Assembly: GCA_013202925.1 (NCBI GenBank)
Contig: JABMRA010000087.1
Location: forward strand, 1-57,596
DNA from: Candidatus Omnitrophota bacterium
GTDB taxonomy: Bacteria; Omnitrophota; Gorgyraeia; Gorgyraeales; Gorgyraeaceae
DNA length: 57,596 bases
Direction: 5' to 3'
This document shows positions 2,875 to 19,157 of the stretch, piece after piece (position 1 is the stretch's first letter; each line of letters begins with the position of its first letter). The position numbers and the translations under genes were made by a program. The notes beneath the pieces were generated by a model. It made no database searches. It saw only the letters and a program-made list of their open reading frames with translations, and was not told the DNA's origin.

Positions 2875-2975
2875 AAAATTTGTTTCATAAATTTTAAGGT
2901 ATTTCAGCAGCTACAATCCTCCTATTCGTCGGATTGTTTAACGCTGCTTCAATATCAAATTTGTTTCACAAATTT

Positions 2976-3051: not shown

Positions 3052-3198
3052 ACGTAGTTTATCAAGGGATTTGAAACGAGCGAACGCCGAGCGAATAGCG
3101 AGGAAAAGGCCGCAATCCGCGGCCGGCAGTGAGCGAGGTGAGTCTACGCAGTCCGAGCAATCCGCGAGGGCGAAGTAGACGAATCCCGCCTGCTCCAC
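3052..3198 (+). repeat. tRNA-trailing conserved element, copy A (about 128-nt core plus a 19-nt direct repeat of the tRNA-Ala T-loop-to-acceptor 3' end)
   Basis: CGAATCCCGCCTGCTCCAC at 3031-3049 (inside the tRNA) recurs at 3180-3198. The intervening core aligns almost base-for-base with 18813-18914 downstream of tRNA-Met. It contains the hairpin GGCCGC-AATCC-GCGGCC (3108-3124). Confidence 0.6.
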
Positions 3199-3277
3199 TG
3201 TCCTGCGCTCAAACAGAGTGAATCTTCGCAGCATGCTACGGACGGTAAACCATTAAACATAAAGCGAAGGAAAGATA

Positions 3278-4015
3278 ATGCGGTTTTATGTTCCACCCGA
3301 GTCGATATTTACGGAAAGACGTATCATCGAGATAAAGGACATGGATGAGATACATCATATACGGGATGTGATGCGGCTGAAAAAGGATACCAGTGTAAAT
3401 GTGTTTGACGGCAAAGGCAAGGAATATTCAGGGGATATAAAGAAGATAGACAAGGATTCAGTGGTAATAGAGATCAATGGGGTCGTGGATAACAAAGGTA
3501 TTATCCCATACAAGGCCACGCTTTATCAGGCGATCCCCAAAAAAACCAAGATGGATTTTATAATTGAAAAGGCCGTGGAATTAGGCGCGGATACCATTGT
3601 CCCAATGGTCACCGAAAGGACCATAACAGCCCTTAAAGAAGAGAAGAGATCTGCAAAGGTGGAGCGCTGGAGGAGGGTGGGTAAGGCAGCATCCAAGCAA
3701 TGCGGCAGGGTGGAATTGTCTGAAATAGCAGATGTCACGGAATTTAATAATGCCCTGGAGGCGTCAAAGAAAAACGATCTTGTTATCTTTGCCGCGCTTG
3801 ATAAGGATGCAAGGCCATTGAGATCAATATTGAGAGATTCAAGCCAAAAAAACATAGCGATATTTGTCGGGCCAGAGGGTGACTTTAGCCAGGACGAGAT
3901 CGCCGCGGCCAAGGGGCAGGGATACAGCATCTGTTCTCTGGGGCCGAGGGTCTTAAGGGTGGATACAGCTGCAATATATATACTGTCATGCCTGAATTAT
4001 GAAGGTGCTGTGTGA
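3278..4015 (+). CDS. rsmE: 16S rRNA (uracil1498-N3)-methyltransferase RsmE
   Basis: 245 aa. MRFYVP start, LYQAIPKKTKMDFIIEKAVELGADTIVPM and the C-terminal IFVGPEGDFSQDEI are typical RsmE/SPOUT motifs. Confidence 0.85.
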   Translation: MRFYVPPESIFTERRIIEIKDMDEIHHIRDVMRLKKDTSVNVFDGKGKEYSGDIKKIDKDSVVIEINGVVDNKGIIPYKATLYQAIPKKTKMDFIIEKAVELGADTIVPMVTERTITALKEEKRSAKVERWRRVGKAASKQCGRVELSEIADVTEFNNALEASKKNDLVIFAALDKDARPLRSILRDSSQKNIAIFVGPEGDFSQDEIAAAKGQGYSICSLGPRVLRVDTAAIYILSCLNYEGAV

Positions 4016-15962: not shown

Positions 15963-15991
15963 TTGTCATAGCATAGTTCAAATGGTATTAT
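15963..15991 (+). promoter_or_regulatory. sigma70-type promoter placed for a leaderless mRNA
   Basis: TTGTCA (15963-15968), 17-nt spacer, TGGTATTAT (-10 at 15986-15991). Only 7 nt separate the -10 from the ATG at 15999, and there is no Shine-Dalgarno. Confidence 0.5.
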
Positions 15992-15998
15992 AAAAGCC

Positions 15999-16964
15999 AT
16001 GAAAAATACTAAATGCCCTGTATGTGAAAATCCCGAAAATAGACTGCTCTATTCAAAAGAAGAAGATCTGGCCGCAGAAAAATTTTCCTTTAATATTCTA
16101 AGGTGCGGTAATTGCAGTCACCTCTTTTCCTTTCCATTGTCTTCTTCCGGAGAACTAAATAGCAATTATGAAGAGACAAGGGCTATATTTCTTGATGACC
16201 TGAAAAAGACAAACAAAAAGATTAAAAAATGGGATAAGGGATGGAGAAAGTTTATTTTAAAAGAATATCTAGGATATAAGAAAACCCCGTCGAGGAACAG
16301 CCTGAAATATCTATGCGCGTTCTTTATGTCGAGATTCACCTCTCTTACTCTTGTGCCATTTCACGGGGAAGGTAAAATACTGGATGTCGGCTGTTACAAC
16401 ATGCTGTACCTTCACCTGCTTAAAAATCTAGGGTGGGATGTACAGGGAGTCGAAATTGATAGAAATGCCTGCAGGCTGGCAATGGAATTAGACATCAGTA
16501 CCTTCTGCGGGGAACTAGAAAATGCGGGATTTGCTGAAGAGTCTTTTGACGTGGTACGGTTCAATCAAGTCCTTGAACATATCCCTGATCCTAAAAAAAC
16601 AATAAATGAGGCAAAGAGGGTATTGAAAAAAGGCGGAAGGCTTTACATCTCTGTTCCAAACGCAAGAAGCCTGGCCCGTCTTTTATTTGGAGATATATGG
16701 CTCGGCCCCGCAGGCCATGTCCAGGGATTTTCCCCTCGTTCCGCAACATACCTCTGCAGGCACCTGGGGTTCAAAATAAAATCTATGAGATTCAATTCAA
16801 GCAGAAATATCCTTATTAACGGTATTGATTATTTTCTCAAGGGCATGGGGAAGGATATTTCACTGAAAAACAGATTTACCCGTTATGCTATCGCTTCCCC
16901 GCTCAATTTTATTCTGAACATACTGCATCTCTCTGATACGCTCACTGTCGAGGCAGAAAAATAA
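15999..16964 (+). CDS. class I SAM-dependent methyltransferase with N-terminal Cys4 zinc ribbon
   Basis: CPVC...CGNC at the N-terminus, SAM motif ILDVGCYN, and FDVVRFNQVLEHIPDP plus GGRLYISVPN motifs. Confidence 0.75.
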   Translation: MKNTKCPVCENPENRLLYSKEEDLAAEKFSFNILRCGNCSHLFSFPLSSSGELNSNYEETRAIFLDDLKKTNKKIKKWDKGWRKFILKEYLGYKKTPSRNSLKYLCAFFMSRFTSLTLVPFHGEGKILDVGCYNMLYLHLLKNLGWDVQGVEIDRNACRLAMELDISTFCGELENAGFAEESFDVVRFNQVLEHIPDPKKTINEAKRVLKKGGRLYISVPNARSLARLLFGDIWLGPAGHVQGFSPRSATYLCRHLGFKIKSMRFNSSRNILINGIDYFLKGMGKDISLKNRFTRYAIASPLNFILNILHLSDTLTVEAEK

Positions 16965-17041: not shown

Positions 17042-17070
17042 TTGTCAGGCACTAAACCAAATGATATAAT
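17042..17070 (+). promoter_or_regulatory. sigma70-type promoter (duplicate of the tRNA-Met promoter)
   Basis: TTGTCA (17042-17047), 17-nt spacer, TGATATAAT (-10 at 17065-17070). Same architecture as the promoter at 18652-18680. Confidence 0.5.
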
Positions 17071-17081
17071 CATCTTTCTAC

Positions 17082-17120
17082 GGGCCCATAGCTCAGTTGG
17101 TTAGAGCACCTGACTCATAA
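17082..17120 (+). pseudogene. truncated tRNA-Met(CAT) 5' half (acceptor 5' strand through the end of the anticodon loop)
   Basis: 39/39 nt identical to 18692-18730 of the intact tRNA-Met. Identity stops exactly after the anticodon loop CTCATAA. No anticodon 3' stem, T-arm or acceptor 3' strand follows. Confidence 0.8.
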
Positions 17121-17187
17121 ACCGAATCAAAGAATTTCCGTAACGCTTTGAAATTGCTGCTCCCACAATATCTTAACTAGCAAAAAC

Positions 17188-18513
17188 ATGAAAATTGCAT
17201 TAATACGTTGTTTTTGGATTCCCGTTTCATGGCCGCCTGATATAGGGCTCGCATATATCGCTGCTGTTCTTAAAAAAGACGGTCATGAAGTATCGGTATT
17301 TGATTTGAATATAGAATTCTATCACAAAATGGAAGAATTTAGAGAGAAGTTGGAACAGGGTAATCGCGTTGTATTAGAGGAGCTTGGGGAAGTATTTTTA
17401 CAAAAGCACCAACACCTCATAGGTGAGATATGCGACGATATCTTGAAACTGCAACCGGAGATTATTGGCTTCTGCATTTGGCAAACTAATACAATAGTTA
17501 GCCGGAATTTAGCCAAAAGGCTTAAAGAAATAGACCCGTCTATATTTATAATTTTCGGTGGACCTGATTCCTTTCCACTGTTTTCAGGGAAAAAGATCAT
17601 TGAAGATAAGATAGCAGATGTGGTCGTATATGGTGAAGCAGAGATTACAATCAGGAGAGTCTTGGATTCAATTAGTAAGGATAGAAAAGTTATGCCGATA
17701 CAGGGGACTATTATTAACAGAAACGGTGAAATAGTAGATTGTGGTTGGCCTGATTTAGTAGAAAATCTAGATGAGTTGCCAGTTCCAGCATGGGATGACT
17801 TTCCGCTGCAATTGTACATTGATAAAAACACCATACCGATATCTTTTAGTCGAGGCTGCGCGTATAAATGCGAGTATTGCCCAAGAGAAACATATCCGAG
17901 ATATCGCTGTCGTTCAGCTGAAAATATAGTTTCTGAAATAGAGAGTTGGTTACATGGACATCCGAATAGACGTACCTTTTCTGTCTCTGACAGCGCACTT
18001 AATAACAACCCCAGGCAAGTAGAAAAGTTATGCGACTTAATTATCGATAGAAATCTTCATATCAAATTCGGAGGTTTTGCTATCCCTCATCCACGGATGG
18101 ATTGTAAGTTTCTTTTAAAGATGAAAAAGGCAGGATTTGACGGACTTTGTTATGGAGTGGAAAGTGGCTCTGATAGAATACTTGCTAAACTGGGAAAAAA
18201 AATAAAACTTGAAACTATACAAAGAGTAATAAAAGATACATATGAAGCCGGTATATCTGTTACCGTAGATCTTTTAGTAGGATTGCCCGGTGAATCAGAA
18301 GACGATTTCGACAGATCGCTGGATTTTTTAATTCAGAATAGAAAATATATAACTGATGTAGGGGCCAACCGTTATGGGGTGGCAGAGTATAGCTATGTCA
18401 AATCACATAGAGAAGAATTTGAATTTATACCTGAGGAAGTTATAAATAGTCGCTTTACCAGGCTTAAAGGAATAATCGATTCTCTAAATCTTTCTGTGAC
18501 TAACAAGTATTGA
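17188..18513 (+). CDS. B12-binding domain radical SAM protein (stand-alone, bracketed by tRNA-Met 5'-half repeats)
   Basis: N-terminal MKIALIRCFWIPVSWPPDIGLAYIAAVLKKDGHEVSVFDLN (B12-binding-like), rSAM motif SRGCAYKCEYCPR, and YGVESGSDRIL. Confidence 0.85.
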   Translation: MKIALIRCFWIPVSWPPDIGLAYIAAVLKKDGHEVSVFDLNIEFYHKMEEFREKLEQGNRVVLEELGEVFLQKHQHLIGEICDDILKLQPEIIGFCIWQTNTIVSRNLAKRLKEIDPSIFIIFGGPDSFPLFSGKKIIEDKIADVVVYGEAEITIRRVLDSISKDRKVMPIQGTIINRNGEIVDCGWPDLVENLDELPVPAWDDFPLQLYIDKNTIPISFSRGCAYKCEYCPRETYPRYRCRSAENIVSEIESWLHGHPNRRTFSVSDSALNNNPRQVEKLCDLIIDRNLHIKFGGFAIPHPRMDCKFLLKMKKAGFDGLCYGVESGSDRILAKLGKKIKLETIQRVIKDTYEAGISVTVDLLVGLPGESEDDFDRSLDFLIQNRKYITDVGANRYGVAEYSYVKSHREEFEFIPEEVINSRFTRLKGIIDSLNLSVTNKY

Positions 18514-18651
18514 ATTGAAGGTAAAGACTGCATTGCTCAGGATATCAAAATATCCAGACAGCCTTTAAGTATTTGCAATAAGATAGACCCTTCTTTTATT
18601 ATCGAAAAATACAGGCTGTTCACTCCAAAAAAAGAACTAGGCCAATATCTC

Positions 18652-18680
18652 TTGTCATGATTCGAGTTAGGTGGTATAAT
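18652..18680 (+). promoter_or_regulatory. sigma70-type promoter of tRNA-Met
   Basis: TTGTCA (18652-18657), 17-nt spacer, TGGTATAAT (-10 at 18675-18680), 11 nt upstream of the tRNA 5' end. Confidence 0.55.
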
Positions 18681-18691
18681 TATTTTTCTAT

Positions 18692-18768
18692 GGGCCCATA
18701 GCTCAGTTGGTTAGAGCACCTGACTCATAATCAGGGTGTCCAAGGTTCAAGTCCTTGTGGGCCCACCA
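18692..18768 (+). tRNA. tRNA-Met (anticodon CAT; elongator-type, could alternatively be lysidine-modified tRNA-Ile2)
   Basis: Hand-folded: GGGCCCA/TA/GCTC-AGTTGGTTA-GAGC/A/CCTGA-CTCATAA-TCAGG/GTGTC/CAAGG-TTCAAGT-CCTTG/TGGGCCC/ACCA. G1:C72 is paired, so it is not an initiator. Confidence 0.88.
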
Positions 18769-18935
18769 TATTGTCATAGTAGTTGTAGTGTTTGGACCTG
18801 TAAGGACTTGAAGCGAGCGAGCACCGAGCAAAGCGAGGAAAAGTCCGCAATCCGCGGACGACAGCGAGCGAGGTGAGACTACGCAGCCCGAGCAATCAGC
18901 GAGGGCGTAGTAGCCAAGTCCTTGTGGGCCCACCA
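18769..18935 (+). repeat. tRNA-trailing conserved element, copy B (about 146-nt core plus a 21-nt direct repeat of the tRNA-Met T-loop-to-CCA 3' end)
   Basis: CAAGTCCTTGTGGGCCCACCA at 18748-18768 recurs at 18915-18935. The core is homologous to 3076-3179. Hairpin GTCCGC-AATCC-GCGGAC (18843-18859) shows a compensatory change relative to copy A. Confidence 0.6.
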
Positions 18936-19021
18936 TCCGCCACCAAAGGTGGCGAGATGGTGAGGTCTCGCCCTCCGTCAAAGGCAGAGAGGCGGACCCA
19001 CCAATCCGCCGTAGGCGGATT

Positions 19022-19136
19022 GATCCTGAGGATGCGACGAATAGTAGCATCCGAAGGACCTTCAAAGACGATTAAGGTCCTTCGGTGCCTAAAATGCTTA
19101 TTATTCATTCGCATTTTTTAACGGCACCTCAGGATC
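19022..19136 (+). ncRNA. candidate structured RNA (10-bp closing helix enclosing three hairpins) in the tRNA-Met/tRNA-Val spacer
   Basis: GATCCTGAGG (19022-19031) pairs with CCTCAGGATC (19127-19136). Inside are GATGC..GCATC, CCGAAGGACCTT..AAGGTCCTTCGG (12 bp), and TGCC[AAAATGC..GCATTTT]GGCA. Function unknown. Confidence 0.4.
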
Positions 19137-19157
19137 AAATTTTGCTTCGCAAATTTG

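Follow-up and report, generated by a model that had tools for sequence, protein, structure and literature searches.

How does a tRNA gene come to stand downstream of a perfect copy of its own 5' half, with a single radical S-adenosylmethionine (rSAM) gene between the two? The question is raised by contig JABMRA010000087.1 of a Candidatus Omnitrophota bacterium (assembly GCA_013202925.1, positions 1 to 57,596 of the forward strand); we refer to this whole stretch of 57,596 nucleotides (nt) as the window. The answer we favor, with a probability of roughly 0.75, is that the half copy and the next 54 nt are the left attachment site (attL) of a tyrosine-integrase element that targeted the anticodon loop of tRNA(CAU), and that this element has since decayed and holds an imported rSAM gene. 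An earlier note, made from the sequence of the window, had described the repeat and proposed an insertion at the anticodon loop. The features on which the argument turns are given below; related contigs are designated by L numbers throughout.

17042-17070, forward strand: promoter P2 before the half copy, TTGTCA-17-TGATATAAT, from a promoter scan; presumed driver of the rSAM gene
17082-17120, forward strand: displaced 5' tRNA fragment (tRNA positions 1-38), read as equivalent to the attL-junction tRNA fragment of an integrated element
17121-17174, forward strand: putative left-arm (P' arm) remnant of the element; the arm-type motif GTAACGCTTTGA lies at 17140-17151
17171-18525, forward strand: rSAM cassette, consisting of the gene at 17188-18513 and the flanks that move with it, about 16 nt on the upstream side and about 12 nt on the downstream side
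18589-18691, forward strand: block upstream of the intact tRNA, including promoter P3; 87% identical to L001
18652-18680, forward strand: promoter P3, TTGTCA-17-TGGTATAAT, from the promoter scan
18692-18768, forward strand: intact tRNA with a CAT anticodon, called Met by ARAGORN

The half copy and the uninterrupted locus

The half copy lies upstream of the intact tRNA on the same strand, and the two are identical at 39 of 39 positions (17082-17120 versus 18692-18730), as the earlier note had stated. No chance match to this repeat arose in 100 shuffles, and a third copy was not found within the window with up to 3 mismatches allowed. Upstream, the similarity reaches further, giving 59 nt at 93% identity (17062-17120 versus 18672-18730). 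Downstream, the last identical bases are CTCATAA, the 3' edge of the anticodon loop in the tRNA at 18692-18768 as delimited by ARAGORN and Rfam, again in agreement with the earlier description. More than 120 metagenome contigs, belonging to many different lineages, contain the exact 39-mer. Given this extreme conservation of the tRNA half, the 39/39 identity says little about the age of the event.

By sequence reading, the tRNA at 18692-18768 is not of the initiator type: it has a G1-C72 pair and lacks the three G-C pairs of the initiator anticodon stem. It may be tRNA-Ile2, with a lysidine, rather than elongator tRNA-Met. Its reverse strand scores 54 bits to Rfam family RF04354 (the 5' untranslated region of plastid ycf2), which we take to overlap plastid trnI-CAU. 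A preprint on Omnitrophota lists the pair "Ile2, Val" among four tRNAs named on one element. Below, we keep the name tRNA-Met for the gene in related contigs. In Rfam searches of the window at gathering and permissive thresholds, only tRNAs and the RNase P RNA were matched.

The earlier note had named an assembly artefact as one of the findings that would overturn its proposal. Contig L212, assembled by JGI, differs from the window at 6 positions in 20,966 nt, and the same layout was observed in a second species, in contigs L001 (JGI) and L002 (ENA). Two Logan assemblies from other sequencing runs (L213 and L214) contain rpoD, the methyltransferase gene that follows it in the window, and the upstream promoter, and then end 31 nt into the repeat, as is expected of assemblies at a repeat. 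Since independent assemblies and a second species agree, the duplication is not an assembly artefact. In L001, a 50-nt palindromic insertion (positions 1711-1760) disrupts the half copy, which also carries 5 substitutions in 25 nt. The inserted sequence resembles a miniature inverted-repeat element.

The gene order in the window is dnaG, rpoD, methyltransferase, half copy, rSAM, tRNA(CAT), tRNA-Val, a CT398-like zinc-ribbon gene, RNase H, and RNase P RNA, and the top protein matches of its genes are to Omnitrophota. In distant Omnitrophota (L009, L011, L012, and L013), tRNA-Met and tRNA-Val stand directly behind rpoD. In the sister clade, whose rpoD product is 76 to 78% identical to that of the window, three contigs (L147, L193, and L196) have the tRNA 0.5 to 2.8 kilobases (kb) after rpoD without a half copy. 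All three have a single tRNA-Met. The distance is 0.5 kb in L147; in L193 and L196, two or three unrelated genes lie between the tRNA and rpoD. The space between rpoD and the tRNA is a variable hotspot, and its uninterrupted state has no half copy. The earlier note had pictured the uninterrupted locus as the methyltransferase gene followed directly by tRNA-Met, and this picture does not match the relatives, which have rpoD, tRNA-Met, and tRNA-Val.

An element family with the same junction

The sequence immediately past the half copy links the window to elements that carry an integrase. Positions 17121-17174 are identical to the corresponding junction in L113, a contig of the sister clade, at 38 of 54 ungapped positions (hand count), and they also align with the attL of L209 and with a junction in L206 that resembles the attachment site of a free element (attP). 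In the sites of this family, the tRNA half is flanked on both sides by direct repeats of two motifs, GTAAC.C.TTGA and GGACAC-N5-GGACACC, a placement that makes them resemble arm-type integrase binding sites. The first occurs once in the window, about 20 nt into the arm, and flanks both sides of the tRNA half in L206. The second lies about 120 nt into the left arm (GGACACTATTTGGACACC) and has no match in the window at up to 3 mismatches; the rSAM gene occupies the position where it would be expected. We had considered whether GGACACTATTTGGACACC in L113 is the 3' remnant of an integrase gene. This was rejected: the motif stands on both arms of L209 and L206 and is therefore an arm-type repeat.

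L113 has a perfect half copy behind the native promoter, at the place where L193 has the full tRNA. Its cargo consists of a NYN gene, two hypothetical genes, and an AlbA_2-like gene, without an rSAM gene. From the same metagenome, L148 carries a helicase gene, two HTH genes, and a tyrosine integrase gene that ends about 50 nt before a full tRNA-Met. Homologs of the L148 integrase led to a complete element in L209 and L210 (contigs of 72 to 87 kb). It opens with the native promoter and a perfect half copy, continues with the arm and 10.5 kb of genes (including NYN, Rep_O, and an HTH_17 excisionase-like gene), and reaches an integrase of 355 amino acids. The full tRNA-Met begins 24 nt past the integrase gene and is followed by tRNA-Val, a CT398-like gene, RNase H, and a TPR/PDZ gene, and this downstream synteny is that of the window. 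The arrangement of integrase and tRNA-Met seen in L148 and L209 recurs in L205, L211, and L218, while L206 holds integrase, half copy, and arm on one molecule, either an attP or a tandem array.

The family also extends to other tRNA genes. In L216 (tRNA-Thr), a perfect 38-nt 5' fragment lies 8.2 kb upstream of the gene; in L217 (tRNA-Ala), the distance is 5.6 kb. The fragments end at the 3' edge of the anticodon loop in L209 (Met), L216 (Thr), and L217 (Ala), as in the window. The integrases are co-oriented with the tRNA and end about 24 nt before its +1 position, and at the right end of the element a promoter-like sequence, TTGTTT-17-TAGAAT, overlaps the integrase stop codon, from which it follows that the element supplies both a promoter and the tRNA 5' half. 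The minority 5' polarity was observed in every family member whose neighborhood was read (L148, L205, L209/L210, L211, L216, L217, and L218). The proposal of an anticodon-loop insertion with the 5' half duplicated thus finds the same junction in elements adjoining a tyrosine integrase, and an empty locus in relatives. With the L148 integrase as query, more than 6,500 proteins matched at E ≤ 0.001, some of which may be unrelated tyrosine recombinases; a scan of IMG/VR with the integrase gave one distant match. On a limited literature search (Omnitrophota, integrase, and tRNA), the integrase family appears to be new, including for Omnitrophota.

Taking these comparisons together, we propose the following course of events. 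In the attP, the tRNA 5' half (positions 1-38) would lie together with a promoter just behind the integrase gene. Integration, with a crossover somewhere within the 39 nt, would strand the host promoter and the host 5' half at the left end, place the element upstream of the tRNA, and rebuild the tRNA from a 5' half supplied by the element and a 3' half belonging to the host. In the lineage of the window, the integration and replication module would later have been lost, and an imported cassette with the single rSAM gene would have become joined to the arm remnant at 17171-17174. The unit of half copy, arm, and rSAM would then have been exchanged between species after their divergence, and P2, stranded and intact, would transcribe the rSAM gene. 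Of these points, the data show the repeat, the empty site in relatives, the likeness of the junction to integrase-bearing elements, the limits of the cassette, and the recent exchange; the crossover position, the sequence of events, and transcription from P2 are inferred.

Several observations weigh against this reading. L113 and L148 come from one metagenome and are not proven to belong to one genome. Between the two copies in the window there is no integrase, excisionase, or recognizable integrase remnant: tblastn with the family integrase (word size 2, E up to 10) against the window, L001, and L113 gave only a match of E = 2.9 at 18521-18574, treated as chance. In line with the earlier statement that no integrase is present, no relative of this integrase family was detectable anywhere in the window. 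The right side is unlike the right end of an element: it lacks GTAACTCATTGATAATA and GGACAC..GGACACC, and its promoter, P3, is strong and of the native type, so that one additional rearrangement or more has to be assumed. A third promoter (P1, described below) is followed by no half copy, which shows that the history of the locus is more complex than one integration and decay. Finally, the noncoding blocks from the rpoD terminator to the structured element behind the tRNA are 87 to 91% identical between the window and L001. With flanks as similar as the unit itself, the exchanged tract may have been larger and may have moved by homologous recombination.

A further contig shows the geometry of the window as an independent case. 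On the reverse strand of L097 (45-2778), a perfect 39-nt half copy stands behind the native upstream region, and 2.66 kb further on come a new upstream region and the full tRNA. The 2.66 kb encode PEGA/SHOCT and Lcl_C proteins and a protein of 335 amino acids without assigned function, with no integrase, and the upstream sequences resemble Bacteroidota-like contigs that have this tRNA.

The rSAM cassette, its promoters, and rival explanations

The only plausible gene between the copies is the rSAM gene at 17188-18513, with Pfam domains B12-binding and Radical_SAM. Its product has the features of class B radical SAM proteins, namely an N-terminal PF02310 match (6.8e-15), a PF04055 match (2e-22), and the CxxxCxxC motif, read from the sequence as CAYKCEYC at 17857-17880. 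No NCBIfam equivalog matched it at cutoff; the best was an ApyD-like model, at 155 bits versus 750. A Shine-Dalgarno-like motif is absent before the gene. The earlier note had reported both that the gene stands alone between the copies and that it lacks such a motif; the lack is not unusual, being common to 15 of the 33 genes in the window and to the gene's native cluster.

That cluster was identified in L003, which holds the closest rSAM gene outside this layout (83% amino acid identity) within a radical SAM/SPASM cluster that has no tRNA sequence nearby. Homology between the window and L003 runs from TCTTAACTAGCAAAAA, 16 nt before the ATG, to a few bases past the stop codon, and homology between the window and the arm stops at ..ATATCTT. 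These two limits place the join at 17171-17174, 51 to 54 nt inside the arm, at a TCTT microhomology. The idea that the rSAM gene was itself the inserting entity has to be revised accordingly: the 54 nt past the half copy are left arm, and the gene joins 51 to 54 nt further in. The gene is 29 to 34% identical to the other B12-rSAM genes of the window, which makes it an import and not a local paralog, and it should be counted outside the core rSAM repertoire of the host. Behind the rSAM gene in L001, at 3211-3360, lies an open reading frame of 49 amino acids (MDIDKVFKK...SSVYCSSPLPDS...) in a stretch that is missing from the window; it could encode a precursor peptide.

To place the cassette in time, we compared the window with L001. 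The rSAM genes have a proportion of synonymous differences (pS) of 0.124, a synonymous divergence (dS) of 0.136, a ratio of nonsynonymous to synonymous divergence (dN/dS) of 0.26, and a third-position identity of 0.92. For the C terminus of rpoD, pS is 0.626, dS is 1.35, third-position identity is 0.61, and dN/dS is about 0.02 (0.024/1.35). With a dS so far below that of rpoD, the unit was exchanged long after the species split, and the rSAM gene is under purifying selection. The noncoding blocks have diverged about as far as neutral sites in the rSAM gene. That the high-identity block begins at 17096 reflects only the insertion in the L001 half copy, and site-specific and homologous exchange are not distinguishable from the tract boundaries.

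Three promoters bear on how the locus was assembled and how its genes are expressed. In addition to P2 and P3, the following features lie between rpoD and the half copy.

15963-15991, forward strand: promoter P1, of the tRNA-Met type, TTGTCA-17-TGGTATTAT, from the promoter scan; directly past the rpoD terminator
15999-16964, forward strand: class I SAM-dependent methyltransferase gene (Pfam Methyltransf_23/11)

Each repeat copy is preceded by TTGTCA, a 17-nt spacer, and a TG-extended TATAAT (11/12 consensus) whose end lies 11 nt short of the tRNA +1. The spacers of P2 and P3 have only 5 of 17 positions in common. The promoter architecture given in the earlier note (TTGTCA-17-TGnTATAAT with diverged spacers) is thereby borne out. 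Compared with the native tRNA-Met promoter of the sister clade (L196 and L090), the P1 spacer matches at 14 of 17 positions, the best of the three promoters, P2 and P3 match at 9 of 17 each, and the element's own promoter at the right end of L209 matches at 4 of 17. The P3 spacer of the window agrees with that of L001 at 16 of 17 positions, versus 4 of 17 with the element's own promoter. By direct reading, the bases 5' of the P2 -35 hexamer, AAAAAATCCTC, differ at only one position from those of the L196 native promoter, AAAAAATCCCC. The promoters do not decide which copy is the original: the P1 spacer is closest to the native one, and the bases upstream of P2 are nearly identical to it.

P1 occupies the position that the tRNA promoter has in relatives and ends 7 nt before the methyltransferase ATG (window 15963-16002). 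The methyltransferase mRNA probably lacks a leader and is probably transcribed from a tRNA promoter that has been displaced. The gene itself, between rpoD and the half copy, is an insert specific to its lineage; in L001 the same slot holds an unrelated GDSL-like gene of 299 amino acids, and in distant relatives it is empty. Between P2 and the rSAM ATG, no terminator was found in the window. P2 most likely transcribes the rSAM gene, and the predicted transcript would start at the tRNA +1 with a 106-nt leader made up of tRNA nt 1-38 and the arm remnant, ending at a start codon without a Shine-Dalgarno sequence. In L001, P1 and P2 have diverged from those of the window, and a strong promoter is kept at the P2 position despite the disrupted half copy. 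An intact promoter beside a broken half copy suggests that the promoter, and not the half tRNA, has been maintained.

The tandem promoters agree with a series of events, each leaving behind one promoter copy, as when islands grow through repeated integration. An extension of the favored reading, possible but doubtful in our judgment, is that tRNA(CAU) anchors an upstream island, in which serial integrations of 5' polarity each donate a new promoter and 5' half, the displaced promoters P1 and P2 come to drive cargo (the methyltransferase and rSAM genes), and the unit of half copy, arm, rSAM, and P3 is a cassette without an integrase that family integrases still carry from species to species in trans. 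If true, the tRNA gene would be the seat of a natural promoter-capture cassette system.

Other explanations differ in what they take the half copy to be. It is unlikely, in our estimation, that the rSAM gene and the promoter with its 5' half copy are a minimal element that inserted at the anticodon loop on its own account, perhaps integrase-less and mobilized in trans. The geometry matches the attL and right attachment site (attR) of the family, P3 would be the promoter supplied by the unit, and the unit from half copy to P3 is common to the two species at a dS of 0.14, versus 1.35 for rpoD. However, the arm next to the half copy occurs with unrelated cargo in L113, L209, and L206, and the rSAM homology to the native cluster begins only at 17171. 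In addition, neither the second left-arm motif nor any right-arm motif is present, making recognition of such an element by an integrase doubtful, and the flanking noncoding blocks are as similar between the species as the unit is, which fits homologous exchange.

The three native-type promoters in tandem could instead suggest a local segmental duplication, by illegitimate recombination or replication slippage during gene insertion, without a recombinase and with the identity of the copies kept by gene conversion. From -10 to +15, the half copy of each genome is indeed nearer to its own full copy than to the half copy of the other species, and tRNA position 17 is T in the window and C in L001, which points to some gene conversion. 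We nevertheless consider this origin improbable: the junction of CTCATAA with ACCGA.. and the arm behind it are the same in integrase-bearing elements and in the attP-like L206, and slippage would not reproduce a common end position in the Met, Thr, and Ala cases.

Retention of the tRNA half as an RNA leader (for example, to direct processing, stability, or regulation of the rSAM mRNA) is very improbable. Perfect half copies are present in the window, L113, L209, L216, and L217, and P2 should put the half at the 5' end of a transcript. Yet L001 has the promoter and the rSAM gene with a disrupted half copy, and perfect halves also precede cargo of unrelated kinds, which is what a recent scar in so highly conserved a sequence would show. 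Folding of the leader is predicted to be weak (-19.7 kcal/mol over 134 nt), and the leader has no Rfam match.

Tandem tRNA genes are common in bacteria and misassembly can make repeats, but we give almost no weight to the half copy being the remnant of a tandem second tRNA gene or an artefact, given that the sequence past 17120 is element arm and not tRNA, that four assemblies, built from separate read sets, and two species are in agreement, and that no relative has the second complete tRNA at 17082 which the earlier note had named as the sign of tandem decay. A split tRNA of the archaeal type was also considered and rejected: a complete tRNA gene is present, and the only other piece of tRNA-Met, 22 nt from the T loop to the 3' end (18915-18936), is without the 3' strand of the anticodon stem and belongs to another repeat family.

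Neighboring structures and known systems

That other repeat family follows the intact tRNA directly.

18769-18936, forward strand: structured trailer element, separate from the 5' scar, ending in an exact 22-nt copy of the tRNA 3' end (18915-18936)

The trailer starts with a stretch antisense to the tRNA 3' end (18793-18812). Trailers of this kind were found twice in the window (18769-18936 and 3052-3199) and also in L001 (3651-3831), L193, L009, and L011; they are absent from L209, L196, L148, and L115. Those behind tRNA-Met and tRNA-Ala(CGC) have a core of about 105 nt in common at about 88% identity. Each starts antisense to the T-arm and acceptor 3' strand of its own tRNA and ends in an exact copy of its own T loop to 3' end (22 nt for Met, 19 to 20 nt for Ala). 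In the predicted fold, 7 of 38 pairs have compensatory changes, a count drawn from only three sequences. The architecture recurs with different cores in distant Omnitrophota, and in L011 it follows both tRNA-Met and tRNA-Val, in tandem. The trailer belongs to no Rfam family, and three core patterns were without a match in IMG/VR. It may represent a target-duplicating mini mobile element or a processed RNA imitating a tRNA minihelix.

Two further kinds of structure were observed around the tRNA genes. A hairpin, AAATTTG-loop-CAAATTT (window 2950-2975 and 19125-19157), ends 2 nt before the +1 of tRNA-Ala and tRNA-Val, and the same hairpin precedes tRNA-Met in related contigs (the tRNA leaders of L115 and L113); it looks like a conserved 5' leader element adjoining the RNase P cleavage site. 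The spacer from the trailer to tRNA-Val (18937-19157) is densely structured, with long-range inverted repeats (among them 19020-19031/19127-19138 and 19051-19062/19074-19085), and has no Rfam match. Further afield, L147 carries a fragment resembling a REP-associated or IS200-type transposase at about 200-330 on the reverse strand (..LIPNHVHFIVVPEND.., frame read by eye), between rpoD and the tRNA-Met promoter, another sign of an insertion hotspot.

For annotation, the favored reading means that the region is a decayed integrative-element hotspot and not a new tRNA-related mechanism. Integration with 5' polarity redirects the host's strong tRNA promoter onto the left end of the element, which would offer imported genes a simple route to strong expression in these poorly known bacteria. 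The 39-nt target, exact in many lineages, may ease movement between species.

How does the locus compare with known systems? The cis-mobilizable elements related to streptococcal integrative and conjugative elements are integrase-less remnants flanked by attachment sites and can be mobilized in trans. Like them, the window has cargo between attachment-site remnants without a recombinase of its own; unlike them, it has no right-hand arm sites, and mobilization in trans is here conjectural. In classical tRNA-integrating phages and islands, the attP carries the 3' part of the tRNA. The elements described here likewise carry the displaced part of the gene, with a crossover at a symmetric stem-loop of the tRNA gene (partly after the introduction of the Islander paper, PMC4383910). 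Their polarity, in contrast, is the mirror image; a promoter has to come with the element as well, and that of the host is made to read into the element.

Closer parallels exist for both the growth of the island and its polarity. In Prochlorococcus, serial integration of tycheposons beside a tRNA leaves partial tRNAs, degenerate elements, and cargo (10.1101/2020.12.28.424599). The locus resembles them as a hotspot beside a tRNA with partial tRNA copies between units, with integrases lost from older units and cargo kept, and its content varies between close lineages (the window versus L001, L113, L193, and L196). It differs in phylum and integrase family, and in that the island in the window grows upstream and displaces the tRNA promoter onto cargo. 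Islander admits islands of either configuration; among its 3919 islands, 159 have a 5' fragment, versus 3760 with a 3' fragment, and 2083 are anticodon-centered (PMC4383910). As in the 5'-fragment islands, the intact tRNA of the window has a same-strand fragment upstream that ends at the anticodon loop, and the element of its relatives restores the gene and uses a tyrosine integrase; in that family the integrase stop codon lies about 24 nt from the tRNA +1, with the promoter overlapping the 3' end of the integrase gene. Unlike the Islander islands, the interval in the window is 1.6 kb without an integrase; it fails the integrase and length filters, as a remnant. By this comparison, the feature in the window is a decayed member of a known minority kind of tRNA-gene island.

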